A stretch of DNA of 61,739 nt, counting the filler, from Sanchytrium tribonematis (lineage: Eukaryota), in assembly GCA_018985235.1 (NCBI GenBank). It is 14 parts of 14 records of this genome, joined end to end, with 100 filler letters (N's around TTAATTAATTAA, not from the genome) between each part and the next. Parts side by side here need not be neighbours in the genome. Positions count along the whole stretch, not along the records: positions 1 to 21,543 come from JADGIG010000091.1; positions 21,644 to 24,661 come from JADGIG010000931.1; positions 24,762 to 27,777 come from JADGIG010000932.1; positions 27,878 to 30,876 come from JADGIG010000936.1; positions 30,977 to 33,988 come from JADGIG010000933.1; positions 34,089 to 37,092 come from JADGIG010000934.1; positions 37,193 to 40,192 come from JADGIG010000935.1; positions 40,293 to 43,291 come from JADGIG010000937.1; 6 more parts are not named here. One strand, given 5' to 3'. The notes under the pieces were generated by a model that made no database searches, was not told where the DNA came from, and saw nothing but the letters and a program-made list of their open reading frames with translations. Positions 8,182 to 58,681 of the stretch are shown in pieces; the first letter of the stretch is position 1, and every line of letters starts with the position of its first letter. The position numbers and the translations under genes were made by a program.

Positions 8182-9079
8182 TTACTCATAAGATGTCAAT
8201 TTAGCATCAGAGTGGTCTGTTGAAAATGCAGGCTTGTTATTTTGGCTTCTAAATAATGCTTCTTGCGTCACTTGTAATTCATCAAGCTTAATAAATAAAA
8301 GTTACAGACGGTTGGATTTTTTCTACTCCCGCTGACAATCCAGCTAATAGATCTTTTTTCGCGTGGAAGTACTCAGAGAAGCATCTCAGTGTCTCAGGAT
8401 GCTCAATCGAACTCTTCATGAGCACAGTAGCGTCCTCCACAGATTTCACAAACGCATCTTCAGCCGCTTCTAGTTCTTGTCTGTAATGGTCAACTGTAGC
8501 CGGTTTTGCTGATCTAAATCTACTTTTACAAGCGTCAAGATGTAGCCTAGATGTAGCTACGTTTTGTCTCCCTTTGTTTACCATTTGCATTGTAGTATTC
8601 AAATACGTTTGAAGTGGCAAAATGACTTGTTGTTGGATCTGCTCGAAATAATTTGACCAGTAAGTGTTTCCCTGCAATTGAAAAGTTTGAATATGCGCTA
8701 ATGCTGCACCCAGAGGCTCGTGTTGGTGGAAAAGCCCAGTTGCAATACCAACAACTTGAGTAAAGTCAATTGAAGGAATTAGATCCTCTTTAATTGTGTT
8801 AAAGTTTTTCATAATGTTCGAAATAGGAGACGTAGAATTAACAACAGGAGGAGAATAGTTGCTTCTCATTTCTGTTTGTACTTGTTTGATAAATTGAGTA
8901 ATTAATTCTTTAAGAGCGTCTACTTGTTGTTCCAATAGAAGAAAATCCTCTGGTAGTTTCGTACTATCTTGAGACTGCCCAAGTGATTCTTTTGCCATTT
9001 GCACACTTAGCTCAATTTGCGATGATAATTTGTTTGCAAAAGAATTAAAATTCATCTCCGTTCGTTTCGTTTTAAACAT
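8182..9079 (-). CDS. BAR-domain protein, Gvp36-like (2 exons; start may be 9055)
   Basis: QMAKESLG...TKLPEDFLLLEQQVDALK and RLHLDACK; removing intron 8287-8305 gives PSLDELQVTQEALFR with a stop at 8182. Confidence 0.8.
8287..8305 (-). other. 19-nt intron
   Basis: GTAACTTTTATTTATTAAG; removal restores the BAR C-terminal helix. Confidence 0.85.
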
Positions 9080-9084
9080 TTATT

Positions 9085-9916
9085 TTAGGTATCTAATCGG
9101 CTAGCCAACTGCTGCAGCATCGATTTAGTTGCAAAATCCTCTTGGAAAAATCTGTCCAAACTGCCGTTGATAAGGGTAATAGGAAGAGTCTGTTTTAGCG
9201 CTTCCTTTGCTCTACGTAAAAAAACTATACCTAGGATGATCCATTAGTCTGACATAACATCTAATTATATGCTTTAAAACTCTTTGACTAGGTTGTTCCA
9301 TGAGTTGATTCACCATGTGTGACAGTACAACATTCACTGCATTAAATCGCTCGTAAGTTTGGCAAATATAGTTTAAACCAATTTCATCTGTTAGGATTTT
9401 CTGAACAATAAAAATGGCTACCACGCGGCTAAGCTCTGTTCCGCTTTCCATAATTCTAAGGCAAAGTGGAATTATTTCCGTCGACAATAAAAATGCGATT
9501 ACTTCCGTTGAGTCTTGTTTAACTAAAGCGCCTATAACACCTAAACTAGTTAATCTCAAATATTCAAACGGTTTTAATTTCGACGTAGTATTTAAAAATG
9601 GATAAAGATATAATGGGATATGACAGTGAATAACTGCTTGCTTTGTATCTACATGGCTTGCAAGACATTGCAGGAGTGCTAACGCATTACAAACCCGATT
9701 ACTTTGTACTGAGGTTAATTTTGGCGGGGACAGGTAAGGATAAATAGATGTCATTTCTTGAACTAACAATGTGCAGATTCCTGTTGCATTCCAAACGTAG
9801 AGAGCCATCTCTGGTATAGTCTCTCGTTTTTTAGACAGCTCGAATAATGCAGCTTGTCTAGTTTCCGGATTATAAAGCTGAAATAAAAGCTGTCCAATCT
9901 CAGTTCCAATATTCAT
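9085..9916 (-). CDS. CAF40: CCR4-NOT subunit Rcd1/Caf40/CNOT9 (2 exons)
   Basis: [13 protein letters not shown] and [18 protein letters not shown]; the spliced C-terminus reads [13 protein letters not shown]. Confidence 0.95.
9212..9230 (-). other. 19-nt intron
   Basis: GTATAGTTTTTTTACGTAG; restores HPR-AKEAL. Confidence 0.92.
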
Positions 9917-10055
9917 GTCAACAAAGTCTCAAGGAGACCCAATTCTCCCAAATCATAAGACATAGAAACACTAAGTTTTTAATTATTTAAACGGCTTGCC
10001 AATTATTTTGGTTTACTTAGTATTTAAAAATATTGTGGAAAAACTCCTTGACGTA

Positions 10056-10616
10056 ATGAAAAAAGTATGTGTTTTAGTTTCTGGCAATGGATCTAATCTG
10101 CAAGCTCTGATAAATTGCGCAGATAAAAATTACGAGATTATTCAAGTTATCTCCAACAATTCTTCTGCTAAGGCACTTGAAAGAGCTGAGACCGCAGGAA
10201 TCGCACATACAGTGGTTAATTATGTTAATGGAGAACCTCGAGCAGACTATGACAAAAAACTTTTGTCGGCTATGAATTCTTCGGTGGAACTGGTGGTTTG
10301 TGCTGGCTTTTTAAGAATTTTAAGTTCAATTATTTTGGATAATGTCACAGTAATCAATATACATCCCGCCCTGAGAAACGAATACATAGGTCTTAATGCA
10401 ATTGAAAAGGCCTTTTCGGATTTCAAGTTATTCAAAAAAAATCATTCGGGTGTTATGGTACATTATGTCAGCGAGGTGGTGGATAGAGGCAAACTAATTG
10501 CGGAGCAAGTAGTTCCAATATATCCATTCGATACACTAGAAATTTTGAAAGCTCGAATTCATAAAGCGGAGCATTTATTAATTTGTAAAGCAGTGAAGCA
10601 AGTAGTAGAATATTGA
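10056..10616 (+). CDS. ADE8: Phosphoribosylglycinamide formyltransferase (PurN/Ade8)
   Basis: VLVSGNGSNLQAL, AGFLRIL, NIHPA, GVMVHYV...DRG. Confidence 0.92.
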   Translation: MKKVCVLVSGNGSNLQALINCADKNYEIIQVISNNSSAKALERAETAGIAHTVVNYVNGEPRADYDKKLLSAMNSSVELVVCAGFLRILSSIILDNVTVINIHPALRNEYIGLNAIEKAFSDFKLFKKNHSGVMVHYVSEVVDRGKLIAEQVVPIYPFDTLEILKARIHKAEHLLICKAVKQVVEY

Positions 10617-10673: not shown

Positions 10674-11974
10674 TTATAATACTTCGGACCCAGCATTTTT
10701 CTTAAGATTACATCTAGTAATGTCTTCAACATTTTCATCTTTGACCCACTTAGAAACTGCAATTGATCCTGATATTCCCATAAATATAAATCCAGCCGCA
10801 ATCACTATATAATTATTCCTAATGCTCTTATTACTACTTCCTAGTTTTAGATGAAGCACTGCCGGGTAGATGAATCCGATAGGAATACATCCAAAGGTTC
10901 CAATCACTGAAATTAATAAATCAAGAGATGAACTGGCCAAATATGCACCAATGCAAACAAAAGTTGTTAGAGAAACTCGTAATTTAGTTGATTGATTCAA
11001 CTGAAATATCGACTCCACAATTTCAAAAGCGGGAAATAGCTGCAATGGGACAGAAAAAATAATGGAAATCGAATATAAAATTTGGACGAGCAATAGCATA
11101 AAAGTGGATTGCAAATTTAGCAGAACTATTGATGCAGTGTTATTTCCAAAACTTATCGATGAAGTTATTGAAACAGCAAAATATAAGAACATTACGCACA
11201 AGATCGTCAACTTCAAAATTTTGGAGAAATCTTTTGGGTGTTCCATCGAGTTTTGTATAGGAACAACCAAACCAACTCCTATGTAAGCTTTAACGACCTT
11301 CAAAGGAATAAATCGCTGTTCCAAGAAATAAAAAGGCGTTAATCTGTTGCTAACACGAGCCGAACGCCATTGTCGACCATATGAAAGGCAGAGTTCCAAA
11401 TGATATAAAAACAACCATAAACTATCAAGGCACTAGCAATAATCATAGTTTTCGAAAGCATTTTCAAATCTTTCAGAAAGCACAGTGGAATATAAATTAG
11501 CAATTGAGGCATAATTAACAGCAAGTTGTCAACATGCTGCAGTTTGCAATCAGAAAAAAATTGGATTAAATCCAAACAATTTTGAGCTATAAATAAAATG
11601 TAAGCCATTGAAAATCCGATCTGAGATAGAAAAATAGACCACAAAATGCATGATCGAGTGCGAGTACCGTATAACTTACCGCCTATTTCCCAGTAAGTTC
11701 CTGAATGAATTATTGCGACCTCTCCTAAAAAGAGCATTCCTAAAGCAGATAGGTATGCCGAGGCACCCATCATGATTATTGATGGCACTAGTCCTGCCTT
11801 GGCGAATCCCCGAGGCAAAAATAAAACTCCCGTTCCAATAAAAGCCTTGAATAATAGAAAAAATGATTTTTTAGTTGTGTTTTTCGGTAAATCCAGGACA
11901 TCATTAACAAAAAGCTCCTCGGTTTCTGGCTTACTAATGTCCGGACTTGAATTTTTCAGCTTCGTGTATATCAT
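10674..11974 (-). CDS. Amino-acid transporter (Avt3/Avt4, SLC36-like); one clear intron and one unresolved frameshift near 11345
   Basis: FKAFIGTGVLFLP, SQIGF; spliced FLGTAIYSFEGVGLVVPIQ; PLQLFPA. Confidence 0.88.
11279..11297 (-). other. 19-nt intron
   Basis: GTCGTTAAAGCTTACATAG; restores YSFEGVGLVVP. Confidence 0.9.
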
Positions 11975-13054: not shown

Positions 13055-15134
13055 ATGTCATCTGCGGACCAATTGCAAATCATTCCTCTTGGTAGCGGCA
13101 GGGAGGTGGGTAGAAGCTGCCACATCATAAAATTCAAAGGCAAATGTATAATGCTTGATATGGGAATCCATCCTGCAAATAGCGGCATGGACGCTTTGCC
13201 TTTTATTGATAGTATAGATACAGGTGAAATAGATATTTGTTTGATAAGCCATTTTCATCTGGATCATTCTGCAGCATTAGCATATTTGTTGACTAAAACT
13301 TCATTTACGGGAAGAGTGTTCATGACACATCCCACCAAAGCCATTTATTCTTGGCTGCTTAGCGATTTCATTAAAGTAAGTAATGATCAACTATACACTG
13401 AAGAAGACCTTCAAGACTCATATGACCAGATAGAAACCATTGATTTTCATCAAACGATAGATGTCGAAGGAGTCCGAATCACAACATACTATGCTGGACA
13501 TGTATTAGGTGCTGCGACTTTTATGATTGAGATCGCTGGTGTGAAAATATTTTATACTGGTGACTATTCTCGAGAAGAAGATCGCCATCTCATGCCAGCG
13601 GAAATTCCATCTTCGAAACCAGATGTACTAATTTGTGAGGCCACTTACGGTGTTCAAACTCATGCACCACGAGCCGAGAGAGAAAATAGGCTAACTTCAT
13701 TGGTTCACAGGACTGTTGAACGCAATGGAAGATGTCTTATCCCTATATTTGCCCTTGGGAGAGCTCAAGAATTACTCTTAATATTAGACGAGTATTGGTC
13801 GAGACATCCTGAAATACAGCATATTCCACTTTATTATGCCAGCAATTTGGCCAAAAAATGCATAGCTGTTTATCAAACTTATATCAATCAGATGAATCGC
13901 CGAATAAGACTTCAGTTTGAAAGAAAAAATCCATTTGTTTTTAGATATATACAAAATTTGAGAGGTATGGACCAGTTTGATGATAAGGGTCCTTGTGTAG
14001 TACTTGCATCACCTGGTATGCTTCAAAACGGACTATCTAGAATTCTATTGGAAAAGTGGGGACCTGACAAGAAAAACGGAATCATTATTCCTGGTTATGT
14101 TGTCGAAGGAACGCTCGGAAATGTATTTTAATCTCATTTAGCTTATTCTGTCAGAGCCTAAAGAATTTCCTGCTATGAATGGATCTCGATTACCCTTGCG
14201 AGCATCTATTGACTACATTTCATTCTCGGCTCATGTCGACTTCATTCAAAACAAAGAATTCATCGAGGAACTAAATCCTTCTCACGTCGTGCTTGTTCAC
14301 GGAGAGTCCAATGGAATGCAGCGTCTATGCAATGCTTTGCTTTCGAATGTTGAGGCCAATGAATCTATAATACCGATCGATTCCAGTAATTTACATTACG
14401 AAGTTCATATGCCCAAAAACGCTGAAATACTCTCTTTGACATTTCGCGGTGAATTAAAAGCCAAAATCATTGGAACCCTTTCTTCAAACTTATCAAATTC
14501 AATTAGTGGACTTTTGGTTACAAAAGACCATATCAATACTATTATTTCTACTTCAGAGCTACTTCAATTTACGGACTTATCTTATTCCACGATTCATCAT
14601 CGTGTATATGTGGGTTGGAAAAATACACATACTACCGGTTGGGATTTTCTGTCTAATTCTCTCACCAGGGTGTTTGGGTCTCAAAATGTCCTGGTCTTTA
14701 AAAAACCCGTCAAAAACATTGAAATTAATTGTGTAAAAATATATGGTATTGAGATATTCCCAAAAGATGAACTATCGGACTTAGTCATCGAATGGACCGC
14801 GAATCCGTTTAATGACATGATCGCTGATGCTGTCATGATTTTAGTAATCCAAATCGAAACACTTCCGTTCTCTGTCACAGACTCAAATTCAGGTGTTAAA
14901 TCGGTAACTTTGAAGAAGGTAGTTGAGGATTCAAGAGAAATTGACCAGATGAACAAATGGAGCACCTTTTTTTCAAACCAATTTAATTGTACAATCAAAG
15001 AAAATAATTTACTACTAGAATTGGACGATGAGTTGGCTCTGTTTGACCCGATATTAATGTCGGTAAAAAGCGAGAGTGAGATTTTTCGAAAAAGGGTAGA
15101 GAATCTTGTTCAATTAGCAACCGCATATATTTAG
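13055..15134 (+). CDS. YSH1: CPSF73/Ysh1 pre-mRNA 3'-end endonuclease (2 exons)
   Basis: [44 protein letters not shown]; intron 14123-14141 joins the two ORFs. Confidence 0.96.
14123..14141 (+). other. 19-nt intron
   Basis: GTATTTTAATCTCATTTAG; restores [13 protein letters not shown]. Confidence 0.93.
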
Positions 15135-16555: not shown

Positions 16556-17489
16556 ATGAATATAGACGCTACAATTTCGAAATTAAATCAGAAAAAACTG
16601 CTCGAGGAAGACGAAATCCAAGAGCTGTACTATCTTGTAAGAGAGATCTTTATTAATGAAAGCAACGTACAGCAAGTATCAGCACCTGTAACCATTTGTG
16701 GAGACATCCATGGCCAATTTTATGACCTTTTGGAGCTATTTCTAGCTGGTGGAAATTGTCCCGTTACAAACTACTTATTTTTAGGTGACTATGTAGATCG
16801 TGGCTATGACAGTGTTGAAACTATTTTATTACTTGTTGCATTGAAATGTAGATATCCAGACAGAATTACTCTAGTAAGGGGAAATCACGAAAGTCGTCAA
16901 ATTACCTCTATATATGGATTTTATGACGAATGTATAAGGAAGTTCGGGAATGCAAATGTTTGGAGACTATGTTGCGACATCTTCGACTTACTGCCTTTAG
17001 CTGCAATTATAAATAATGAAATTTTATGCGTTCATGGAGGGCTATCTCCCTCAATTCAAAAAATTGATCATATACGCCTTATTGATAGAAAGGTTGAAGT
17101 TCCCCAATCTGGTCCATTTTCTGACTTATTGGTAATATTAAATAACGAAGTGGAGTGACCCAGATGATTCTGAAAAAGGCTGGCGACAATCATCTAGAGG
17201 TGCAGGCTATGTATTTGGTGAGGATGTCACCAAGAAGTTTATTCATCAAAATAAGATTCAGTTTATTACTCGCGCTCATCAATTAGTCATGGAAGGGTAC
17301 AAAGAGCATTTTAATGGCCAAGTAATCACGATCTGGTCAGCACCAAATTACTGCTACAGATGCGGAAATGTTGCCAGTGTACTTCAGCTTGATGAACATT
17401 TAAAAAAAAAATTCGTAGTATTTAAAGAAGCTCCCGAAAATATAAGAGGTCTCCAATCAAAACCTATTGTACCGGAGTATTTTCTATAA
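16556..17489 (+). CDS. PP2A-family Ser/Thr phosphatase catalytic subunit, PP4/Pph3-like (2 exons)
   Basis: GDIHGQ, GDYVDRG, RGNHE, DLL-WSDP after splicing, [16 protein letters not shown]-terminal EYFL. Confidence 0.95.
17132..17150 (+). other. 19-nt intron
   Basis: GTAATATTAAATAACGAAG; restores the conserved DLLWSDP. Confidence 0.95.
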
Positions 17490-19211: not shown

Positions 19212-21234
19212 TTATTTGTCTACAGGCGGTATTTGATCATCAGTCAGACAGGATTCCCAAAATTCTCTTGTCCTTTTCAAGTCGGACAGAAAATCTCTAG
19301 TTTTTGGAAAAATTTTCATGATTGACTGAATTAAAGGGTTGCACATAAAATCGTTAAACGATATTCCTAAGCGAGCCTTCTGTGGGTAATTTCGATCCAT
19401 AAATCCACTTATAGGATAGTTTAATTTGCTTTCTTCATCTCCTTGCTGAAACATTTCTTCCTAAGTAAAGCAGAAATACTTGTATGGCTTCACCCCACCT
19501 CTTTGCCAAAGGTAGGGGTCTTAAAACATTGCTGATATCTGCGCACTTCATCAACATCTCTAAGCACCTAGTTCTGTGTTCCTTATCTTCTGGCTTGAAT
19601 GACTGCTCGCTTACAGTGATTTCATTAAATTTTCCCAAAACATTGACGTGCTTAGCAAGATCCGTGGCTAATATACATCGAATTATTATTGACCTTATTT
19701 GTAATCTATCTTCTGTGTCATAATTACTGAGTATTTCAAATTCGTTTAGTAGAAGGAATGCTTGGTGACAGTGATAATTTTCAAGAGGAGATTGATCATT
19801 GTATAACAAGGCCAATGGAGAGATTGTAGATATATGGAAAGTATTTGTTCTTCCGTCATGTCCAAGATCGTGACATAAGCAAGAAAGTAAGAAACCATAA
19901 GCCTCGTTTTCAGTAAATATTCCAAAGTCATTATTTTCCACATATCGAGTAATTAGTAAAAAGCCTGCTTGGGTCACATCGAAAGCATGATGAAAATTGT
20001 GATACGGATTAATTTTTGCTGAATATCCCTTGTAGACAGCGCAGCAAAATTGAGAAAAATTAACTCTTGAAATTTTCGAATATTTTAAGAATCCAACATG
20101 ATCGAATAAATCCACTAAAAATTTGATTAGCTCACTTGGGGTATAATCCCACACATGAAATGACCAGTCCTGCAACAATTCTAGTTTTTTTTTGTCAAAA
20201 TTATTTAATTCAACTTTAATTTTGTTGGTTTCTGGAGATCTTAACATATCTTTTGGTGATCTTGAACTTTCCGAGAGTGTATTTGTCAATAAAGATAGCC
20301 CTTGATGATAGTGTGTGTGGGAATCGTGCTTTTCGATGCCACCATGAGTGCTTTTTTCTACAATATTGTCCAATTGATCTTCCATACTGGAAATTAAAGG
20401 CACTGAAATTTCAATCGAATCTGTGGGGGATGTAGTATTACTCGGTATTGAATGGAACCTTTGGGAATCTCTTAGTCTAGTTTTATCTGACTTTGAGTTG
20501 AAAGAATGTTTTCTGTCTTTCCAATACAATAATCCTAAGCTACTTGCTCGACGTCTATTTCTTTGCATTTCAAAAGAAACTGATTCGGGAGTATCCCTAA
20601 GAACCTCTGTCGCAAGCCAAGACTTTGTTTCACGATCCAAGTCAGCGTCTAGTAGATTTTCAAAATACCTCAGAAAATCAGGTTTGTTTAAATCAGTTTT
20701 TTTTAAATCTTCAGCGATGTATTCCAGCATATTTCTGGTGCTGTCAGTGAGACTTTCCTGATTTAAAAGATTATTAATATTGTTGCTTATGGAGTTAATA
20801 GGCGTTATAACAGTTGAAGTGATATTATTTTTAAAATTTTTGATTTTTTCTTCCAACAGCGCTCGCTTCTTTTTTTCTTCTTGTAATTCGCAATGAAGTT
20901 CATATTCCCTATTTTTCCTGTATGCCAATTGTAAAATTGCATGTACTATCAAGCCAGTATCTTTCAGAAACATTTCCACCGGAAAAACAGCATCGGCAAT
21001 TTGCTTGTCTTTTCTCTTAAGCCAAGAATTTTTATTCTCATATACGTATATGATTGTAATAGGCTCGTGTAGATTTTTCAAGGTATCCCAAGAATTGGAT
21101 ATTACAATCTCTCCACTTTCCACTTCTCCTTGTATTTTAATATTTGTATGAATCAATTTTAGGCTCTCGTACAGGCGGTTATGATTTTGGTCTGATAAAT
21201 CTATTCTTAAATTGATTCCGATACTACCAGACAT
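19212..21234 (-). CDS. Class I cyclic-nucleotide phosphodiesterase (2 exons)
   Basis: NPYHNFHHA, CHDLGHDG, LENYH, ILATD, KCADISN; spliced AIQ-EEMFQQGDEE. Confidence 0.93.
19461..19479 (-). other. 19-nt intron
   Basis: GTATTTCTGCTTTACTTAG; restores EEMFQQGD. Confidence 0.93.
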
Positions 21235-23067: not shown

Positions 23068-24463
23068 ATGATGATTTTCCATTATTTAATCATCATTTCC
23101 ACATTTCTACATGTTTATTCCATCTCACCAGACTGTCCACTAGTCATAAGCCTTTTTCAAAGTCTCAATATGCATAACACCGATCCACTTGAATTCCGAC
23201 AACTTCCAACAAATTGCTGTGGATTTACAAGCACATCAAAGCACGTCAAAATATCCTGCAATTTAAATAATGTCACAGTCATCTCATTGGCATTTTTAAA
23301 GATCGATGGGACCATTTCAGCCCAATTTGTTCCACCCAATTTAAAACAACTTTTCATTACTTATAGCGAATCTTTGAAATGTACACTTCCAATCGGCCTC
23401 CCAGATTCCATTACGATTCTCAATTTTGTAGATTGTAGACTGACTGGCAATTTACCACCTTTACCTAAAAGTTTAACTTCTTTAACCCTGGATTACAATA
23501 ATTTAAATGGAACTCTGCCAACCCTACCAGTCAATTTAACATCCATCAAAATAAGTAATAATCAATTTACCGGTAATTTACCTACCATCCCCAATAAAGT
23601 CACTTGGCTCCAGATTTCTCATAATTTGTTATCAGGAAGTTTAAATTTTTTACCCAATTTAATCACAGATTTCTTGGGATATAATAATTTATTTAATGAG
23701 TCTATTTCTAAATTTCCGGATAAACTGCTTAATTTGTATATAGATGCTAATATGATTCCAGGTCCTCTACCAAATATTTGGCCAATTGGATTAAAAATAT
23801 TAGATATGAATACAAATCAATTAAATGGAACTATTCCCTCATCTCTCATCAATTCCAATGTCACTGAGATGTATCTATACAATAATTTACTGAGTGGCAC
23901 CATTGATGGCATTTTTAAAAGCTATATTTGCAGTTTAAGTAAAAATCAATTAAGTGGCGTCATTACAATTTCACAGCCTATTGTAGTGGATATTAGCAAT
24001 AATCAATTCACAAATGTCATTATATTTGATTATACCGACTTGAATTATTGCTCATTGGATAATAATCCATTAGATCTCGCTTTTGCAAATTCGTCATTTG
24101 CATCTTTATGTACTTTCACGACACTTCGTATTTTTGATTTATGTAGGACCAATTAAGAAATTGATTACAACGAGTCAAGTAGATCTAAATACGACTATTT
24201 ATGAGCCATCCATGAATTTGACATTGGGCACATTTCCAAACACGGAATTAAATTTGCAAAAATCACAAATATCTATTCCATTTGATCAAAAAGACGCATC
24301 ACATGCTGCTGTGTCTGCGAATATTACTGTATTTTCTGTATTTAGATGTATGATTGATTTCTTGTTGTTGATTGGATTAATTGTGAGATGCAAAAATGGA
24401 ATTAAGAATAGACATAAGAAAAGAACAGTGGTTTATAGCAGTATGAGTAGTCACAACTTTTAG
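23068..24463 (+). CDS. Receptor-like LRR protein (signal peptide, LRRs, Ser/Thr stalk, TM, basic tail; 2 exons)
   Basis: LxLxxNxLxGxLP repeats; intron 24128-24146 joins it to the TM-encoding ORF. Confidence 0.85.
24128..24146 (+). other. 19-nt intron
   Basis: GTATTTTTGATTTATGTAG; gives TTLR-PIKKL. Confidence 0.85.
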
Positions 24464-24611: not shown

Positions 24612-24761
24612 ATCTTAATCAATCAAAAATACAACCTCCCCCCCCCCCCAAAAAAAAAAAANNNNNNNNNNNNNNNNNNNNNNNNNNNNNNNNNNNNNNN
24701 NNNNNTTAATTAATTAANNNNNNNNNNNNNNNNNNNNNNNNNNNNNNNNNNNNNNNNNNNN

Positions 24762-28079: not shown

Positions 28080-30635
28080 TTATTGGATTCCAATTTGCAC
28101 TGATGCAGTTTGTGTAAAATTACCAATTTGAGATTGTGATTTTTTTTTTACTATAAATTATTTATTAGAATTAATCTACTTGTCTCAATAAGTTGATATG
28201 CAAATAGTAGAATCTTTGAAGGCATTGTTGTTTTTGTCCCTCGTTTAAGATTTGGTAATTTTTTAGAAAATGTTTGAATCTGAATCCATCTCCTTTCTCC
28301 TTTGTGACTTTATATTTAGTAATCTTGGATTTTAATTGGCTAAATTTGGCGTTATGATTGTGGCTAAGATAATCCACTAAATGATTGAGAGAATGTTTGT
28401 CGTTAACATCATGTCCTTTGACTTTGATGAATTGACAATTGGGTAAAAATGTTGAAAATTGAGAAATTAGATCAATGGAATAAATATTATAAATATTGTA
28501 GTTTGGGTTTTGATAATTGGCGATAATATTCATTGCAGCCTGTGAATCGGTATAAATTGAAATTTCATAATTATTTAATTCCATACTAAGAAGTGTTGCA
28601 CCAATAATTGCAATTTCTCCTCTAGTGGAGGTGTCAATATGTAGATTATTAAAATTAAATGTTTTCAAATAAAATTTGTTATGAAAAATAATGATGGAGC
28701 CACCGGAGGCATTGATTTTATCGTGCATGCTTGCATCAGTATATATGCAGCATTGATGAATGTCCAAATTGGCCTGTATGTCTTGAATTTTCTCTTTGAA
28801 ACTTGTAATTAATTTTAAATTTTTTTTTGGATTAAAAATGTCGCATTTTGGTATATTTGGCAAAGTATTTAAATGGGAAAGATGACATTTATACATTGAA
28901 TTTACAAATTTGTGTTCATCATTGCAGCTGGTGCAAGTTTTACCTTGTGGTGAAGGATAATTTCGTTTTAAAATAGATTGCATGAATGGAAATTTGTTAT
29001 AAAGATGAATTAATGTCTTATTTAAAGTAAAAGACATTTTAAATTTAGGTGAATAATATAATAAATTGGGTTTGTTGGCTTTTACACTAAGCTTATTGTG
29101 ATAGCGATTGATTAGTTCTTGCCAGCGATGCCCAAAAGAATCAAATTGAAATAAGCAGTGTAAATCGGAGTTTGGAAAATATCTTGGGATTGAGCAAAGA
29201 TTTCTGATAGATCTATTAATAAAAGCATTAATTTTATCTACACATTTTCTATTAATTTGAAACAAACAGAGTCCATACTCGATACATGGACGTACAAATG
29301 ATCCAAATGCACGTGCAAGATGTTGTAATTTTAAACTATTTCTGAAAATTCCACCGTGTCTGATTGATTTTAATTTCAATCGAGCTGCGGTCAAATTTCT
29401 TTCAATTTGGGGTTCAAGGTCTAATCCAAATTTGTTGATTTTGAATCCGAGCCAAGTCACAAATTTCAAATCAATTTCGCAGGTTTTAGATTCATTTAAA
29501 TGTAGCCCCATTTGATTTAGAGCGCAGTTAATGTGGTTTAGTAAATTATCTGTCTCATTCATGTGACAGACAAGTAGCAGGTCATCTGCATACCAGAATA
29601 AATGGCAATCTTGAATTGTGATATGTTTCGTGAAATGATGCACAACTGCCGTGAAAATGATGGGTGAAAGTACTGATCCTTGTAAGATCCCTCGATTAAT
29701 TTTAGCTACGCTTGATGTGTTATTTCCTATCTTCAATTGGATTGTCTGTTTTGTAACCAAATTTAAGATGATGGATTTGACAGAAGGGTTTAGATCGCTC
29801 TGGTTTATGTATTCTTTTATTTTTGAATGTGAAATAGAATCGAAAGCGGCTTCAATATCTGCCTGAATGGTTTTATAATTATAGATTTGGTCCCCAAGTG
29901 ATTCCACTAGTGTCATATAGGAGTAAGCTGCATCAATTGTCGATGATTGTGGTTTGTATGCAAACTGGTTGTTACCAGAGGTGCATTTGAGCATCACTTC
30001 TGTCTTTAATACAATCTCTAGTAGTTTTTTAGCCGCATTTGATAAACAAATGGGTCTATAAAATGTCAAGTTATTGAAGATCTTTGATTTGTTTTTGTGA
30101 ATGGGTCTGATATAGTTTTCATGAAAGATCTGTGGTGTTTTGCCGATTTGGATGGTAATATTGTAAATTTTATGAAGTAGATTGATCATAATTTGTGGTG
30201 TGATGCTTGCAAATGACAAATTCCCTTCATTCCATCCGTCACTGGCACATTTTTCTTAAAATCAAACCAATAAGCGTCTTTTCCATTTGATATGTATCCA
30301 CTAGCTTCAGTTAATGAGCCTGAATATAATGTGACATTATAATCTGAATTCAGACAAGTAAATATCAATTTGAAGTTATTATTTTGAGTAGATACAAAAA
30401 GCGTCTGCACAATAATGGAAATAGAATCACCTCTGTGAAATATTTGACCCATGGATGGTGATTTGAATCCAATTGAGTTTGTAATTCGCAATTCTGACTC
30501 ATTTGGGACAAAGTAGTTGTAGATCCACTGCGCTATACTTACAACAGTAATAATATTGGGTCCAGCTATCATAATGTCTTCCATGGTGATTGGTATTGCC
30601 ATGACCATTGTCAAATAAATTAGAATGAAATGCAT
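28080..30635 (-). pseudogene. Secreted protein family, copy 2, split by a LINE insertion
   Basis: The 5' part (30635-30199) ends GICHLQAS; the 3' remnant (28140-28080) reads SQSQIGNFTQTASVQIGIQ*. Confidence 0.8.
28141..30198 (-). mobile_element. 5'-truncated non-LTR retrotransposon (RT, Cys motif, RNase H) with poly(A) tail and ATCACA TSD
   Basis: YRPICL, DIEAAFDS, GILQGSVLSP, YADD, WLG; RNase H IYTDAS/GEI/YTDSQ/KVKGH; uninterrupted ORF; poly(A) at 28141-28149; TSD at 28135-28140 and 30199-30204. Confidence 0.92.
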
Positions 30636-35073: not shown

Positions 35074-35407
35074 ATCCGAACAAATTTGGAAATCGAAGGA
35101 CATCTCCTCAAAACATCAAAGTCAGAAAAAATAAAGACGATTCTAACTATGCACCTTTAAACAATTTCGTCATCAACTATCAGGTTATAAGACTACGTGA
35201 AAAAGGGCCACTATGCACCCGTTTATATAGTTGATGTACATCTAAAATAATGTTTTCCAGATTTTGTTTGGTTACAATGTAGCCGTTGTACGTTAGTTGC
35301 CTTCTAATACATTTAGTTAAGTCTCAAGCTAGATTTAGGCGTGAATTTAATCTTATATATTTTTTTAATCGATTTTAGTGTATTACTTCACTAGTCCTTC
35401 AAACAGA

Positions 35408-38549: not shown

Positions 38550-38776
38550 TAATGTGAATATGGCGTACAACATGGTAAATATGAGACGCAATGATTAAGA
38601 AATAGATGCAGGGTCATTTTTGAGCTTGTTTGACCAATCAAAATGATTAATAAATTACTTGCAAATTAATTTGTGCTTACAGAGGCAGGCTACCTCCAAA
38701 AATGCTACCTGATCATCTGGGTAAAATTGATTGGTTTTAATGCGAAGAAATTTTTGACGGTAAAACACCCCTAAAA

Positions 38777-40192
38777 ATGGATGTAGCTGCGTGTATTACG
38801 GCATGTGTTACTGCTGCTGATTACGTCAAAAAACTATTACCGATCATAGAAAGAATCGAGCAAGCAATCTCAAATGAAGAAACGGCAAAATATATCAAAA
38901 TTCGATTAGATCTACTCAAATATGATCTAAATCACATTACATTAGACCAATATGATGAAATTAATGCAAATTCCAAATCCAAATTCCATAATTTATATAT
39001 AAAATTAATAGAAATCTCTGATTTTGTAGTCAAATTTGAAGGCAAATGGAAATTCACACATTTTAGATTATCCAGCAATGATAAAGGAACTTTAAGCCAA
39101 TTTGATAAAGAGTTGTCCGATTTATCTCAAAATCTAATCATGGCGTTGGTTTTGGATGTCAAAGATGATACGGTGAAGATTCTTCAAGACTCAAAAGAAA
39201 TTAAATATGATTTAAAGACTCTATTAAGCATGGACAATCTGGAGTTAAAAGAATTGTTATCTAGATCGATTTTGACCCTGAATTTGAATCACCAACAAGT
39301 AATGAACAAATTGGATCTTTTATTACCTCAAAGTGAGTCTGGGACTCTGAAGCAAGCTGAGACCGTTAAAGAAATTTATATTTCCAAATCTAGACCACTT
39401 TTTATTGATTATATTGATAATGTCAAGGTATTTAAAGACAAAGAACTGGGAAAAGGGATATATGGCTTTGTTTATTTAGGAGAATGGCAAAATAAGAAAA
39501 GAGCCATTAAAATATTCAAAAATGTGTCATTTACAAATCCAATGACATGCCAAGTGCTTTCAGATACTGTAGCAAATAGTAGCAGTATTATTAGGGAGAT
39601 TAAAACACTAGATAAATTATTTAGATGTGACTATATTTGCAATTATATCGGAGTTTCTTCAATTGATGGTGATTTGGCACTGGTGATGGAATATATTGAC
39701 AATTATTCACTCCATGAGTGGCTGCACACATTTCCAAACCACATGGAAGATCCAAATTCACTTACAAACCAACAAATTAATCAAATTCAAATTGGTGTTG
39801 CAGCTGGTTTAGCATACATGCATTCGCATGGAATAGCCCATAATGATGTTAAATCAGCCAATATCATGCTAGATAGTCAATTTTATCCCAAATTAATTGA
39901 TTTTGGAATGGTTAAAATTATTAGCACGACAACGAGATCAAGTGGAAATTCTAGCAAGAAACAACTGGGAACAGATTATTGGAGGGCACCAGAGTATTGG
40001 AAATATAATGAAGAGGTTGCTGACACGCGTGCTAAATATCCATATGCAGGAGATGTATTTTCATTTGGAATTGTTTTAGGGGAAATGGCAACAGGCAAAA
40101 TACCATGGGAGGGACTTACAAGCAAGATAATTGAGGATTCAATTTTCAAAGGCATGCGTCCATACTACGAACATCAATTAGAATCCAGTTTA
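38777..40192 (+). CDS. Protein kinase (TKL-like) with an N-terminal MLKL/HeLo-like helical domain (3' truncated)
   Basis: Kinase GKGIYG, AIK, HNDVKSAN, DFG, APE, GDVFSFG; the N-terminal 130 aa fit an MLKL-NTD-like pattern by eye. Confidence 0.8.
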
Positions 40193-40371
40193 NNNNNNNN
40201 NNNNNNNNNNNNNNNNNNNNNNNNNNNNNNNNNNNNTTAATTAATTAANNNNNNNNNNNNNNNNNNNNNNNNNNNNNNNNNNNNNNNNNNNNCGTCATTT
40301 AAAACTTGCCATTTTCTTGCAAATCAAACATCACACCAATCAACTAATTGTTAAAATCTATTTAAGCGGAC

Positions 40372-40734
40372 ATGAATACGCTAATTATGTTGTTCACTGT
40401 CATCTCTGCTCTTTCCATTATCGACCCAAAACCCACTTTTCCTACGAAGCCATGGAATTATTGTATCAAACAATACGCGACTGACTCTACTCAATATTTA
40501 AAAGTAGACAAGACAACATATGTCCAACAATGCATTCCGCCATATCAATATTGTCTAAATATGACAAAAACCATCAAATTTGCCAACAATGCAGCTGCAC
40601 AAGCTTTTATTATCTCTTGTACTCGCAAATACAAGTATTGTTTGGCAGAATTCAACAAGTTGGTATTCATCAGAGCACCTACTGATGATGAAAAACAAAA
40701 ATATATTCAGAATTGTATTCATACTTCAAAGTAA
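40372..40734 (+). CDS. Small secreted Cys-rich repeat protein
   Basis: Signal peptide; repeated YC...YVQQC / FIISC / YIQNC units. Confidence 0.8.
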   Translation: MNTLIMLFTVISALSIIDPKPTFPTKPWNYCIKQYATDSTQYLKVDKTTYVQQCIPPYQYCLNMTKTIKFANNAAAQAFIISCTRKYKYCLAEFNKLVFIRAPTDDEKQKYIQNCIHTSK

Positions 40735-41107
40735 ATCATGTGAATTTGTATTATACGCCCATTTCATTGTTAAAATTGTTCCTATATTTATTCATTAATA
40801 GGTTTCTTTCTTTCTAGAGTTGAGATTTATTCAACGCCCTTTATAACAATGGGCGCTTTGTTCAACGCCCAGATTAATTCAGTTGTGATTTATTTTTCCA
40901 AACACTATTTTCAAATTGAAGAAAATCTAGCAGTACTTTCCCAAGTCATATAGCAAGCACAAGGTATCAATTTCTATCTCTAAATACCACATATTCGTGT
41001 GACAAGCACAAAGTTGTATTAAATCTTGCCCATTCACTTGCAAATCAAAAACCACACCAATCAATCCAACTCACAATCTATTTAACCGAGACATCCGTCT
41101 ATTCATC

Positions 41108-41644
41108 ATGTTGTTCACCACCCTATCTGCAATTTCCATCATTACTCCAAAACCAGTTACTTATCCAAAACAAACATTGGCATATTGTCAAAAGAGATTC
41201 AGCAACATTCAATTCTTTGTGGCTGTTGATAAAGAAGCATGGATCAAGCAATGTATGAATTGTGAAATTGAATGTCAAGTCAAACCACCTGTTAAAAATG
41301 ATGCATACGAATATTGTATGGCAAAAACCCAACTTATTAAATTTGCAAATGCAGCTGCTCAACAAAATTTTATTCAAAATTGTATGAAAACGTATCAATT
41401 TTGTCAAAAACAACAATCCTCATTTCCAAATGCGGATCCAAAAAAAATCATAGCTCAATGTATTGATTTCAATTCAATTTGTGTGGCTAAAACTGCCACC
41501 ATGCTATTTGCATCTGGGTCATCTTCTCAAAATTATATTGATCAATGCACCAAATGTGAATTGGATTTTGCACAACTTCGATTTATCAAGGCACCTACTG
41601 AAGCAGAAAAAGCTACAATGATTAAAAAATGTATGTTAAAGTAA
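41108..41644 (+). CDS. Small secreted Cys-rich repeat protein (paralog)
   Basis: Shares IKFANxAAxQxFIxxC and FIxAPTxxEK with 40372-40734. Confidence 0.8.
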   Translation: MLFTTLSAISIITPKPVTYPKQTLAYCQKRFSNIQFFVAVDKEAWIKQCMNCEIECQVKPPVKNDAYEYCMAKTQLIKFANAAAQQNFIQNCMKTYQFCQKQQSSFPNADPKKIIAQCIDFNSICVAKTATMLFASGSSSQNYIDQCTKCELDFAQLRFIKAPTEAEKATMIKKCMLK

Positions 41645-47427: not shown

Positions 47428-47816
47428 ATGGTCCACGGTACTTTAGAAGTCATTGTTATTGAAGCAAAGAACTTGAAATCAAGTATCACAGACAAGACTG
47501 ATCCATACGTAGTTTTGACTTGTGGTGGAAAGAAATTAAAAACTACTACCAAGGATAACGCTGGTAAAAATGCAGATTGGAATGAAAAATTCCAATTCGA
47601 TATCTTTGATGGTGTTACTGAATTGTTTTTAGAGGTTTGGGATGAAGGTAAACCCATATTTATGTAGACACTGGAAAAGATGATTTACGAGGAACAAAAG
47701 TGATTGATTTGAACCATGTCTTTGACAAGAAGACACATGATGCATCATTCAGTTTAACCCACAAGGACAAACATGCTGGGGATATCCGATTATGCATGTA
47801 CTTTACCCGAAGATAA
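47428..47816 (+). CDS. Single C2-domain protein (2 exons)
   Basis: GTLEVIVIEAKNL, DPYV, WNEKF; spliced VWDEDTGKDD. Confidence 0.9.
47648..47667 (+). other. 20-nt intron
   Basis: GTAAACCCATATTTATGTAG; restores WDEDTGKDD. Confidence 0.9.
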
Positions 47817-48613: not shown

Positions 48614-49476
48614 TTAGAACCCACTGAAATTCGATACCATATTATTTGGTTTTCTATTTTTTCTTATATGCAGTCTCCAAATAATGTAAATAATCATAAT
48701 TAAGTCGGACACGATTTTAATTATGGGTTGTAAAGAGATATTAATTAGCTTTTGAGTACCATATATGATACTCTGAATTGATGAAATTGCCGTCGTCTTC
48801 AATTTTGAATCCGTGTTTGACGATCTATTTTGAAATGTTGATATATGTTTCTCTGTAAGTGTCGTGACTATGCGTCTAATCGGACCTTGATTAGTTTCAA
48901 CTACGTGTTGGCTGTGTTACAGATGCTGATTCCATTAGTGCTGTGAAATCTATCGAAGACTCAGAAAGATCTGCAGAGTTTGCTATTATTAAAGAAGGAT
49001 TCGAGCTGCTTGTATCCGCTGTCGTCAAATGTGAGGTCATTGTTACTTTCGAGGTCTCAATATTGACTTTAGTTGCTGCTAAATGAGCGTGAAATACGTA
49101 TTACCACTTTATAAGCGCATTTTGATGCAAATGTATTATTTATGAAAATGGCATTTAAAGGATTATAGAGTAAATTGCACGTTGTTAACATGCTGCCATT
49201 CATCAAATTCACATGTGTAAATAAATTATTGCTCAGGTCTAGTAAAGTCGGCTGTTGCAATGTAACAGAACCATTTAATTGATTATTTTTCAAATTACAA
49301 TTTACACAATTTAAAACAGTATTTAATGAGTTACTTAATTGGTTATTGTATAGCTCCAAATTGGTCAATGGCATGCTCAATAATGAGTCAGGAATTGATC
49401 CAGTTATTTTATTATTATACAAATATATATATTTTAATTTGGAAGGCCAAGAGTTGGGCAATGGACCAGGAATCAG
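48614..49476 (-). CDS. Receptor-like LRR protein paralog (5' truncated; 3 visible exons)
   Basis: LRRs homologous to the 23068 gene; two 19-nt introns link them to a Ser/Thr stalk, TM and basic tail. Confidence 0.82.
48886..48904 (-). other. 19-nt intron
   Basis: GTAGTTGAAACTAATCAAG; gives TR-PIRRIVTT. Confidence 0.82.
49079..49097 (-). other. 19-nt intron
   Basis: GTATTTCACGCTCATTTAG; opens the Ser/Thr-rich exon. Confidence 0.82.
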
Positions 49477-50735: not shown

Positions 50736-52239
50736 ATGTTGGATATTGGATTAATCATTACATTTCCTATCATGAGTTGTTTAATTATACTAGGATGCTT
50801 TTATTTTCTAGTCTATTTCATCTCTCCAGAGGATAAATGGGTAGCATGGGCTCCAAAAATATTATTTATTTTCTGCATGTCATTGGCGTGTTTTAATGTA
50901 TTAATGCTTCCATTGGATGTTGCTAATAAGACATATGATGATACTGCGAATGGAGGGATTCCATTGCGTCAAATAGCGATTATATGTTTTATGACGTCGA
51001 TTTCATTGGTTTTTACTTTGGTGCCATTTTGTGTGTTTTGGTATGAAGGGATTGATGATGGGAGTGGTTCTAGTCAATTGGGACATGCAATGAAGTGGAC
51101 ATTGCCTACTATAGTCGTGATTACACTGTTATTTGTCATGACATGGTTATTTGAACGAAAAACATCTGTGGACGTGGCCATGTATATTTCACCCATGATG
51201 CCTGTTGCTAATGGTAGTTTAAACTTTAATAATATACAGCCAGGGTGTACGAGAGATATTTGCTCAAAATACACATATTCAGCAGAAAAGAACATTGGAT
51301 TTGTGATATTTGTCATGGGAATTAGTAGTTGCTTGGGATGGTTTATATTAGCTGCATTTGGTGGGATTGGAATGGCCAGTTTACCTATAGATTTAGTCGT
51401 AGCATTCGTTGATCGACCAAAACCAATTACGTTGGATGTTTATTCTAAAAAGAAAATTGAATTATTGGATGAGACAAAGCGATTAATGATTAGTGCAGAA
51501 AGCATTGCAGAGCGTCAAAAGAAAGATATGACTCAAAAAGTGAGGAGAAAATTAAAACTAGAGGAGGCAGCTTTTAAAAGAGATGTCATGAATTTAGAGA
51601 AGAAATATACTAGAAATGAAGATTCGTATCGTCGATTTGGTGGTAATGCATTATTGGGATATATTAAATTCTTAGTGGGCTGCATGGGTGCTGTTTTATC
51701 ATTTATGTGGGTTTTACATTCTTGTTTGTATTTATTGCCCAAATATTGGGATTTGGACTTGAATATGGATATATTGAATCAATTCTTCGTTACTTTTGAT
51801 GAGCAGGATATTCCATTTTTAGGGACATTCTTTTATGGATTATTCAGTTTTTGGCTGATGATGTGCGTCATTAAAGGAAATACAAAGATGGGAATGCGTA
51901 TCTTATTTGTCGCAGTTCATCCACTCAAGTAATTTGTACTTATTTAGAATCGGAGCCACTTTTATGAATTCTTTAATTTTTAATGTTGGTATTATGCTGT
52001 TGACTTCTATTGCAGTCGTGCAATTCTGCACCAAAGCATTCGATATTTATGCCGGTGATACGGCTATCTTGAATATATTTGGAAGCCAGGTAGAACGCAT
52101 TAAAGGCATCAAATGGGTTTACTCTGTTTTTGTCGTCATCTTTTTAATATTTGTTGTCCTGGGATTCTTATGGTCCACCATGTTTAAAAATGCAGAATTA
52201 AAGAAGTTGCGCAAAGATATGGAGATTGAAGTCAATTAA
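50736..52239 (+). CDS. LMBR1/LIMR-family membrane protein (2 exons)
   Basis: VLMLPLDVAN, PFCVFWYEG, FGGIGMASLP, spliced HPLK-IGATFMNS. Confidence 0.9.
51929..51947 (+). other. 19-nt intron
   Basis: GTAATTTGTACTTATTTAG; restores HPLKIGATFMNS. Confidence 0.9.
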
Positions 52240-56411: not shown

Positions 56412-56432
56412 AGGAGATTTTGAAACGAATTT

Positions 56433-56858
56433 ATGGACAAAGTTTTTACCGAAACCAAATGGAGGTCAGTTTTGGACGAAGAGTCTGGCAAATATTACTT
56501 TTGGAATATAGAAACAGACGAGGTTACTTGGGAAAATCCATTTAAAGCGAAAGAAAATGTGCCTTCGTCAAATCAAATAAAAGAATCGTCACAATTAAAG
56601 GAAGTCCACAATCCTGGTATGATGTATAAAACTAAAAACGGAACAAAGGCTATCGATCCAGAACAATATTATTCTCAAGAAGTGAAATCGAAAAGACATT
56701 TAGAGCATTTTTTTAATTACGAAGAGTATGAATTACAACGAAATATTGAAAGTCTAAATAAGAAGAAAACCGACAAGCATGATAAGCATTTTCGAAAGCA
56801 GAGAGACGAACTTAAGAGGAAAAAGATTTTACGAAAATATGGCACAGATAAGAAATAA
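56433..56858 (+). CDS. WW-domain protein
   Basis: WRSVLDEESGKYYFWNIETDEVTWENP. Confidence 0.85.
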   Translation: MDKVFTETKWRSVLDEESGKYYFWNIETDEVTWENPFKAKENVPSSNQIKESSQLKEVHNPGMMYKTKNGTKAIDPEQYYSQEVKSKRHLEHFFNYEEYELQRNIESLNKKKTDKHDKHFRKQRDELKRKKILRKYGTDKK

Positions 56859-56882
56859 TGCTAAGATTTACTTACTAATTGA

Positions 56883-58681
56883 TCATGAGGTTTTGGAACA
56901 AAGATAATCCAACTCGCCTGATTCTGCACACATTTTATAAAATAATCCTTGCTTTTGCAATAAATTTTTAGGGGAATCAAACTCCACCAATTTACCTTGA
57001 TCTAAGACCAGAATCTTTTCAAAATCGATAATTGTCCTCAATCTATGGGCGACACAAATGATCGTACTGTTACTAAATTCCTGCCGAATCATTTTCTGTA
57101 TGTTTTCGTCGGTCGAATGATCTATGTTTGCTGTTGCTTCATCTAAAATAAGTAGCTTTGATTGCTTTAAAATAGCTCTAGCTAGGCTAAGTTGCTGCCG
57201 AGTTCCAACACTTAGGTTATTTCCGTTTTCGCTCACATTGTCGTCAAGATTGCAGGAAAGTCGCGCTCGTTTCAAGGACTTGTTTAACTGAAAATCATCG
57301 TATTCTGAGAAAGGATCTAAATTGATGCGGATACTTCCTTTAAACAAAGCAGGATCTTGTGGAATCATTGTTATTGCCTGTCTCAGGTCGTACAGCCCTA
57401 TGTCTTTTATGTTGATTCCATCTATTTCGATCGTTCCTTCAAAGTTATCTATAAATCTAAAAAAGGCGGTAACCAAAGTACTTTTTCCTTAATAAATTAG
57501 AATTACCTGCTCCAGTTCTACCTACAATTCCGACTTTTTGTGTCGGTTCGACATGAAAGCTTACATTCTCTAAAACTGGTTTGACCGATTGACTATAGCA
57601 AAGAGTTAAATTTGTTACAGAAACTTCGCCATTGTGTGGCCATTCTATAGGTGGTCGATTTGTTTCTACGATTCTATCCGATTCAGTCTCTAAATTTACG
57701 TATTCTTTAATTCTTTCCATTGAATTCATATTCATTTCTAGTTCTGCGTTATATCGAACCATCCAAAGAACTTGATCTGTAAATGTGAAAGAGTAGCTCA
57801 AGCACAATCCAGCTAAACCAGGTGATATGTCCGAGCAGACAATGGCCAGACCTGATAAAAATACGACAAAAGCGCCAAGCCATTCAGTTCTCACACCAAG
57901 CCAGCGATTTGCTACCCATAAATAAAAGAAAGCTCTTTGATAATAGTCCACTCTATTATAGTTTTCATTCATAAAATGGTGCTCTTTGTTGAATGCTCTT
58001 ATTACATGTGTACCCATTAAAGTCTCTGAAAATAATGAATAAATTGGACTTTTGTTTATGGATTCTAACCGTTTTAGCTCTCTACTTGTTCGCAAATAAT
58101 ACCTTGAGATGTAGCCATATGCCAACACTATTGGAACTACGAAGATGATAAATAACGGTGCGATAGACACCATTAGTAAAATAACGACCAAGGTTCCCAG
58201 AGAACAATATATCACTTGAAGAATACTGGATGCGATGTTTCTATCGACTACTTGAATGTCTTTAGAGAATCTGTTGATTATTCTTCCAACAGGCGTTTTC
58301 TCATAAAATTGAATTGGAACTTGTAATATATGACTTAAGAACTTCTCATGAATTAATTTGGAACCTTTTAATGAAATCATGTATTCAAAAACGAGAAAAA
58401 GAAATGTGCAGACAATGCAGCTAATACTCAACAAGGCGTAATTGACCAAATAGTAGGTTGAGTTGTCGTTGTGTGTTGACCAAACATTTAACCAATAATC
58501 TTGCGATACCCGAAACGTATGGTTTATAAATTCACCACTCATTAATATACACCATAAAACCAGTCCTCCAGAAGTTGAAATATAAAATCGATGGACCTTC
58601 AAGTCTACATTTCCAACAGCCTTGTCTTCGTCCTCCACTATTTTTGTTCCTTCTGAATTTGATAAATCGAGACTCATCTTT
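56883..58681 (-). CDS. ABCC/MRP transporter (C-terminal half; 2 visible exons)
   Basis: TPVGRIINRFSKD, SRELKRL, spliced GRTGAG-KST, LSVGTRQ, LDEATA, AHRLRT. Confidence 0.94.
57488..57506 (-). other. 19-nt intron inside the Walker A motif
   Basis: GTAATTCTAATTTATTAAG; restores GRTGAGKST. Confidence 0.95.

Follow-up and report, generated by a model that had tools for sequence, protein, structure and literature searches.

Near-fixed 19-nucleotide GT–AG segments in a sanchytrid genome as candidate ultra-short spliceosomal introns

Genes of the window and the twelve segments

The 61,739-nucleotide (nt) stretch of DNA analysed here, which we call the window, consists of 14 contigs with N linkers between them and has a GC content of 34.3%. 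A host gene inventory made by hand gave 41 genes with 36.9 kb of coding sequence, and 11 of these genes are interrupted by short segments that we interpret as ultra-short introns (12 in all, or 0.33 introns per kb). All 12 segments picked out in a preliminary description of this DNA were found in place, beginning with GT and ending with AG on the gene strand; 11 are 19 nt long and the one at 47648 is 20 nt, and they are spread over five of the 14 contigs. The host genes encode a BAR-domain protein, CAF40, an amino-acid transporter, YSH1, the phosphatase PP4, a cyclic-nucleotide phosphodiesterase (PDE), two leucine-rich-repeat (LRR) proteins, one of them with two introns, a C2-domain protein, an LMBR1-like protein and an ABCC transporter.

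Six of the segments lie on contig 1. On its minus strand, the BAR-domain gene (9079-8182, 292 amino acids (aa) when spliced) has a phase 0, 19-nt intron at 8287..8305 with TNAY at -8..-5; the cut unites frames of 258 and 34 aa, on the basis of frame joining and the motif, and the upstream open reading frame (ORF) in EukProt stops at this intron. The CAF40/Rcd1 gene (9916-9085, 270 aa) has a phase 2, 19-nt intron on the same strand at 9212..9230, identified by homologue profile and by Pfam, in which Rcd1 matches run from 2-221 and then 222-259 across the junction. In the amino-acid transporter gene (11974-10674, minus strand) a phase 1, 19-nt intron at 11279..11297 was recognised from the motif and profile continuity, and its removal links a short frame ending in SFEG with an exon that aligns to PAT1 from residue 272. 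Homologue profiles place phase 0, 19-nt introns in the YSH1/CPSF73 gene (13055-15134, 686 aa) at 14123..14141 and in the PP4 gene (16556-17489, 304 aa) at 17132..17150, both on the plus strand, and in the PDE gene (21234-19212, 667 aa) at 19461..19479 on the minus strand. The same letters, without gaps, occur for all six contig 1 introns in the contigs of run X1, which are DNA and possibly derive from the source reads, so they are not independent.

The remaining segments are found on four other contigs. An LRR gene on the plus strand (23068-24463) has a phase 1, 19-nt intron at 24128..24146, based on frame joining and the motif and chosen by a motif-constrained gene finder. The 20-nt intron, also phase 1 and on the plus strand, lies at 47648..47667 in the C2-domain gene (47428-47816, 122 aa) and has its branch-like A at position 15; Pfam C2 positions 1-73 of 104 fall in exon 1, with a weak C2-type match (E-value 0.18) in exon 2. 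A 5′-truncated LRR gene on the minus strand has two phase 1, 19-nt introns, the first at 49079..49097 and the second at 48886..48904, both placed by frame joining and the motif. The LMBR1-like gene (50736-52239, 494 aa, plus strand) has a phase 2, 19-nt intron at 51929..51947, where profile continuity is seen (exon 2 matches LMBR1 437-507 with an E-value of 0.025) and where the upstream ORF in EukProt stops. Lastly, a phase 1, 19-nt intron at 57488..57506 on the minus strand falls inside the Walker A motif of the ABCC gene, as judged by structure-chain alignment. The LMBR1-like and ABCC introns were both recovered when a gene finder was run with a flat length prior. The nine introns in genes with both ends present all lie at 0.52-0.88 of the coding length, that is, in the 3′ half (a small sample), and a motif scan of the window gave no 19-nt intron near a start codon.

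Restoration of conserved proteins by precise removal

For four genes, all possible cuts close to the break that begin with GT or GC, end with AG and span 8-300 nt were scored on a profile hidden Markov model of homologues. The cut sets for YSH1 and PP4 were those keeping the final stop, and the PDE profile used 58 of 149 matches, those reaching past the junction. The 19-nt cut ranked first in each gene: 1 of 49 for YSH1, 1 of 106 for PP4 (525.2 vs 488.3 bits), 1 of 508 for CAF40 (457.3 bits vs 449.5 for the next cut and 418.5 unspliced) and 1 of 664 for PDE (288.5 bits vs 275.5 next and 214.5 unspliced). Removal restores DLLWSDP in PP4 as in fungal PP4, and in ABCC the last Gly of exon 1 and the first Gly of exon 2 both correspond to residue 1332 of MRP1 chain 8vt4_A, so that the register is continuous. 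The preliminary description had claimed these repairs for the phosphatase, the Walker A motif and the phosphodiesterase, and all three are borne out. The spliced YSH1 protein of 686 aa equals the uninterrupted Amoeboradix gromovi protein (P0122, 686 aa), with an ungapped junction. Precise removal thus restores a conserved protein at five of five junctions with a homologue-level test (YSH1, PP4, CAF40, PDE and ABCC), with weaker, family-profile continuity at three more of the 12 (transporter, C2 and LMBR1), and spliced YSH1, PP4 and CAF40 have no added insertions relative to homologues at the parts compared. A search of the PDB gave no match for CAF40 exon 2 or transporter exon 1.

The broader claim that these cuts repair the broken host genes fails for the transporter, where the 11279 cut alone is insufficient and the gene has a second break near 11340-11355. 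Frame analysis places this second break at 11339..11356 on the minus strand, with no consensus intron; the GT..AG spans that fit are 13, 16, 22 or 28 nt, are GC-rich and have no A at -6. Possible causes are a true frameshift, an error in amplification and an atypical intron; the same letters are seen in the run X1 contigs, which are not independent.

Among 17,314 random coding positions, a 19-nt GT..AG segment was available in 10.8% (42-nt donor window), and one with TNAY in 0.73%. With a flat length prior of 10-300 nt, no motif and three penalties, the first gene finder gave 19 nt as the sole repeated length (4/20, 3/8 and 2/4 introns), and a gene finder limited to motif-bearing introns gave 19 nt for 7/13 and 6/8. 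The long "introns" proposed by the gene finders were mostly fusions of neighbouring genes, and an intron scan by flank score was too noisy to use, with 108 candidates. We also rejected several motif matches: an 18-nt in-frame match in YSH1 (14386) is ungapped against A. gromovi and so is unlikely to be an intron, and further 19-nt matches at 24614, 29502, 29691, 37066 and 48686 join no useful frames. Nor did we accept the 20-nt matches close to breaks in transposon genes (35920, 6616), of which the former has the wrong length to restore the frame of the DDE transposase.

Donor, branch-like motif and acceptor

When the 12 segments are aligned from the 3′ end, position -6 is an A, position -8 a T and position -5 a pyrimidine in all of them, giving the pattern (Y)TNAY-NN-AG. 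In 200,000 shuffles of the interiors, two invariant columns never occurred and one occurred in 324. We consider this branch-point-like motif likely to be the branch point of the introns. The interiors have a GC content of 19% vs 34% for the window. Counted across the whole window, the strict motif occurs 14 times at 19 nt and 0-5 times at each other length from 12 to 40, a count that is partly circular.

The donor is GTA in 11 of 12 segments, with GTC only in 11279, and the +5 base is T in nine, A in two, C in one and G in none, so the extended donor consensus with a +5 G is not found; U2-type introns do not strictly need it. The 3′ ends are TAG in eight and AAG in four, never CAG, and three of the 12 have an unused AG 5′ of the branch motif. 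Minor (U12-type) introns have an RTATCCTT donor and a TCCTTAAC branch as their consensus; U12-type donor or branch conservation is absent from the column counts of the 12 introns. Loss of the +5 G has also been reported in myxozoans and dicyemids (PMC13644364).

Identity of the host and introns in its relatives

At 90% identity, the YSH1 and CAF40 ORFs of the window cluster with proteins of A. gromovi in EukProt. Over the full protein, window and A. gromovi YSH1 are 76% identical, and the named matches outside the sanchytrids reach at most 69%. In a quick, single-gene YSH1 tree built from 34 selected rows, the window groups with A. gromovi and with an environmental protein from the ENA in one clade on a long stem (P0121, P0122, P0001), with an SH-like approximate likelihood-ratio test (SH-aLRT) value of 100. 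The GC content of the window also fits the 34.6-36.3% reported for sanchytrids (PMC8371127), algal parasites that are reported to be sister to Blastocladiomycota, and the close spacing of its genes fits the compact genomes of the group. From the clusters, the tree and the base composition, therefore, the organism is, as judged by its sequence, a sanchytrid (Sanchytriomycota) distinct from the A. gromovi reference. A metagenome scan gave 11 loci, none of them sanchytrid.

Gene models of the relatives ignore splicing, so translation runs on from the exon into the intron and leaves a read-through tail at the end of the protein. Six of eight tails could be decoded, giving lengths of 19, 19, 19, 19, 22 and 23 nt, while those of P0128 and P0129 were too short. 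The A at -6 and the pyrimidine at -5 are forced by the codons in all six, other interior bases having diverged, and the branch pattern was not used to find the tails. For PDE, the tails of relatives P0371 and P0381 decode to 19 nt where the window has its intron, and 4/4 and 7/8 of the residues that follow agree with exon 2. The CAF40 site is broken in five of five cluster relatives, and A. gromovi CAF40 and P0130 have 19 nt if the stop is read as the 3′ TAG; in total, four relatives have 19 nt at the PDE and CAF40 sites. P0127 decodes to 23 nt with 6/6 downstream residues matching, and P0001 to 22 nt with 3/4 matching, 36 nt being possible as well. These last two, from the ENA, point to an environmental sanchytrid with 22-23-nt introns and the same branch-to-AG distance, and the modal length would therefore differ between species. 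A near-fixed length of 19 nt, as first described, consequently stands for the window and not for the whole lineage. The fixed branch motif, the second transporter break and the 22-23-nt introns of relatives are all additions to that description.

The YSH1 site provides some indication of age. There, the intron of an unrelated metagenome contig (L002) measures 117 nt, and the unrelated proteins P0003, P0006, P0019 and P0123 finish with V-starting tails at the residue of the YSH1 intron. Four other loci in which the motif was found, and A. gromovi P0122, have no intron at the site. This pattern fits an old YSH1 intron that would have shrunk in sanchytrids and been lost in some lines; its presence in the window, P0001 and unrelated eukaryotes makes the loss in A. 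gromovi a probable recent and precise one. For PP4, no sanchytrid relative was among the best 120 matches and truncated matches end elsewhere, so no positional conservation is shown, and none of the outgroup matches to CAF40 is truncated at the junction.

Interpretation and alternative explanations

We regard it as very probable that the 12 segments, 19-20-nt GT..AG inserts with a branch-like A at -6, are old introns shrunk to near the minimum and removed by a U2-type spliceosome. Several points weigh against this. We infer splicing itself from DNA, and an Rfam scan of the window returned no small nuclear RNA (snRNA) and one weak microRNA match. At four of the 12 sites (8287, 24128, 48886, 49079) frame joining and the motif are the sole support. 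The flat-prior gene finder was weak, with 16 of 20 introns at other lengths under the lowest penalty, and its cuts in PP4 and in the transporter were 58 and 41 nt long, respectively, the PP4 choice scoring 41 bits lower in the homologue test. The transporter break near 11340-11355 is not mended by any consensus intron. The relatives' introns are homologous at three sites only and are not six independent draws; moreover, the decodes of P0126 and P0130 depend on the stop codon being the 3′ TAG and that of P0001 allows 36 nt. Finally, the argument from an ancestral position comes from one gene, YSH1.

It is also conceivable, if rather unlikely, that the introns are real and poorly spliced as in microsporidia, being mostly retained in transcripts that are degraded or truncated, with the positions in the 3′ half reflecting tolerance of retention. 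In E. cuniculi 30 of 37 short introns are less than 50% spliced (PMC3629993), and the placement of all nine measurable introns here is the opposite of the 5′ bias of Stentor. Retention would, however, disrupt PP4 in its core, YSH1 in its C-terminal half and ABCC in its Walker A motif, and the branch letters are kept across relatives. The ABCC gene with this Walker A motif, PP4 and YSH1 are all expected to be essential. Poor splicing would in any event alter the efficiency of removal and not the identity of the introns. We give still less credence to an unrepresentative window, in which genome-wide intron lengths are broad and 19 nt looks dominant because only short introns that break the frame were noticed. 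The sample is small (12 introns from roughly 37 kb of coding DNA in host genes), stop-free introns of 18 or 21 nt would stay invisible, and relatives have introns of 22-23 nt; yet five separate contigs concur, the PDE and CAF40 sites are 19 nt in four relatives, the spliced YSH1, PP4 and CAF40 proteins leave no additional insertions at the parts shown, and the strict motif count peaks at 19 nt, with the circularity noted above. The related statement that all lengths are non-multiples of three and that no longer intron was found is true of the 12 listed and is in part a matter of ascertainment, as a stop-free intron whose length is a multiple of three leaves the frame intact and the survey covers 62 kb.

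That the breaks are frameshift errors or signs of decaying pseudogenes, with GT..AG ends arising by chance, is very improbable, and this explanation is already largely refuted. It draws on the fragmentary type of assembly, the one unexplained break and the transposon genes, which are broken in other ways. Against it, A. gromovi and environmental relatives are broken at the very codons where the window is, conserved motifs are restored exactly, the interior motif is invariant and the null rate is 0.73% per site. We find a non-spliceosomal route of removal hardly credible, whether by Ire1/HAC1-type or tRNA-type cleavage or by excision from DNA as with the internal eliminated sequences of ciliates. 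Introns of the Ire1/HAC1 or tRNA type are about 19-26 nt, and the likeness in length to fungal HAC1 introns is the point in favour. Each end of an Ire1/HAC1-type intron has a paired stem-loop with its cleavage motif, whereas the junctions here have no common hairpins (folding energies of -2.4 to -8.6 kcal/mol, with differing structures), the segments have no terminal repeats in common, and the X1 contigs, from the same source, contain no joined form. The GT-AG ends and the branch motif are those of spliceosomal introns.

A proposed splicing mechanism

If the segments are spliceosomal introns, the motif suggests that U2 snRNA would pair with (Y)TNAY and bulge the A at position 14. Attack of this A on the G at +1 would close a lariat loop of 14 nt (15 nt in the 20-mer) and leave a 5-nt tail. 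The acceptor would then be the AG 4-5 nt past the branch A, leaving no space for a pyrimidine tract, and AGs 5′ of the branch would be skipped. Since the donor is cut down to GTA with a T-rich +5/+6 and never a +5 G, the intron would probably be defined mainly by the branch point and distance, recognised as a single unit with little help from the donor past GTA. Length changes arise between donor and branch only (20 nt in the window and, by decoding, 22-23 nt in a relative), the branch-to-AG distance being constant.

The annotation of A. gromovi in the available part of the PMC8371127 supplement includes Prp8, SF3B1, U1-70K, both U2AF subunits, SF1/BBP and Prp22, and U1-70K is annotated in the second sanchytrid as well. 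In the same supplement (supplementary file 4, rows 1135-1136), A. gromovi SF1/BBP, the protein that binds branch points, is entered as a pair of consecutive ORFs on a single contig, which is what a tiny intron splitting the gene would produce. More tentatively, and at a strength short of a conclusion, we propose that Sanchytriomycota as a whole could have the shortest spliceosomal introns of opisthokonts, defined by a double ruler anchored at the branch point (14 nt from donor to branch and 5 nt from there to the end) after loss of the +5 G, with loops tuned by species (19 vs 22-23 nt) and positions mainly in the 3′ half of genes. If this double-ruler reading is true, co-evolved changes in U1/U6 snRNA or branching factors are predicted, and the group would provide a natural fungal series for minimal lariat size.

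Other features of the window

Gene packing on contig 1 is very dense between 8182 and 21234, with spacers of 2-338 nt (5 nt between CAF40 and the BAR-domain gene, 2 nt between the ends of fibrillarin and PDE), and this implies overlapping transcripts. The two LRR proteins, at 23068-24463 and 48614-49476, are related, each with a hydrophobic C-terminal segment and an intron directly after the LRR block; the complete one also has a signal-peptide-like start, and they possibly belong to a predicted surface-protein family. At 40366-41644 an adjacent pair of ORFs has similar cysteine-spaced repeats and hydrophobic N-termini, the longer ORF being without a Pfam match, and a kinase at 38741-40192 has a weak MLKL-like N-terminal domain match (E-value 0.0007, under the curated cut-off). 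Transposon genes at 5264-6901, 28171-30255, 35369-36320 and 58782-61313 comprise Ty3/gypsy-type pol (degraded and near-intact), a non-long-terminal-repeat (non-LTR) reverse transcriptase–RNase H ORF and a frameshifted DDE transposase; the gene breaks at these four places are not mended by the intron motif.

Consequences for annotation

The prediction that gene models would miss these introns is confirmed in EukProt, where seven of 11 upstream fragments looked up end exactly at the intron and YSH1 exon 2 has an entry to itself; the other four fragments had no match, and their guessed starts may be wrong. These truncations are consistent with intron-blind annotation, and the sanchytrid genome paper describes ORFs called by TransDecoder on contigs (PMC8371127). 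Since 11 of 41 host genes have an intron and the ORF caller ignores introns, a quarter of the sanchytrid proteins may stand in EukProt cut short or in separate pieces, with consequences for gene-loss and phylogenomic claims on Sanchytriomycota. The literature check that had been proposed returned no report of tiny sanchytrid introns in the open literature searched, subscription journals lying mostly outside it, and the available portions of PMC8371127, PMC10459994 and PMC10406608 contain no discussion of sanchytrid spliceosomal introns.

Comparison with known tiny-intron systems

Tiny introns are a known kind, and the sanchytrid lineage is a new case. The preliminary description had compared the window with nucleomorphs and heterotrich ciliates. 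Mikrocytos (16-17 nt), microsporidia (from 22 nt), myxozoans and dicyemids, which it left out, belong in the comparison too, and the kind is accordingly less rare than that description suggested. The comparisons that follow are limited to the available portions of the papers cited. In Stentor coeruleus and other heterotrichs, introns are 15-16 nt with the branch A at 10 of 15, that is, at -6 (PMC9505925). They resemble the sanchytrid introns in near-fixed length, GTA donor, a branch A with a 5-nt 3′ tail, AU-rich sequence and few introns per gene, and differ in a loop of 10 nt vs 14 nt, in a less clear counterpart to (Y)TNAY and in belonging to a ciliate rather than a fungus. Stentor introns are also 5′-biased whereas those of the sanchytrid lie in the 3′ half of genes, a placement that reverses the 5′ bias reported in both Stentor and yeast.

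Chlorarachniophyte nucleomorph introns are 18-23 nt with a mode of 19 (PMC4035089, PMC2483917), and share with the sanchytrid the modal length, GT-AG ends, a weak donor and inherited positions shrunk in place. Nucleomorphs are, however, intron-rich relic nuclei with no branch signature reported in those portions (WCTRAY 1.4%), while the sanchytrid introns belong to a main nucleus at the low density given above and have an invariant branch A. Near-fixed-length introns at conserved positions in a fungus, independent of nucleomorphs and ciliates, are supported at the sequence level. Mikrocytos mackini, with introns of 16-17 nt (PMC10245619), is likewise a parasite with narrow lengths, conserved sequence and a low number; it is a rhizarian with shorter introns, and its spliceosome is strongly reduced, while the annotation of A. 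gromovi retains U1-70K, U2AF and SF1. Transporter and metabolic genes have no introns in Mikrocytos and do in the sanchytrid.

Closer to home, Encephalitozoon cuniculi introns are 22-76 nt (PMC3629993) or about 25 nt (PMC6349667), with TAAYTT in E. cuniculi and a motif-to-AG spacing of 2 nt in Yarrowia (PMC2483917). Microsporidia are also intron-poor parasites of the fungal lineage with a branch motif two bases ahead of the AG, but their introns are longer and more variable, have a strict GTAAGT donor and were strongly 5′-biased in the original set. As sanchytrids are reported sister to Blastocladiomycota, the origin of their introns is separate from that in microsporidia. Rozella introns are ~30 nt, and Allomyces has 1.3 introns per kb (PMC8476143). 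Myxobolids and dicyemids have median lengths of 22-27 nt, 22 nt being the lowest animal median in print (PMC13644364); they too are opisthokont parasites with the donor down to GTa, and differ in broader lengths and in a weak A stretch that lies farther from the AG the longer the intron, where the sanchytrid distance is fixed.

At 19 nt, the sanchytrid introns lie under the 22-nt microsporidian minimum in the papers searched and are apparently the first below 20 nt in fungi proper. They would add an independent origin of sub-20-nt introns, below the 22-nt values in print for microsporidia and myxozoans, in a lineage near enough to yeast for reporter tests. The convergence with Stentor on the branch-to-end distance, with length varying on the donor side, bears on the smallest lariat that a spliceosome can close.

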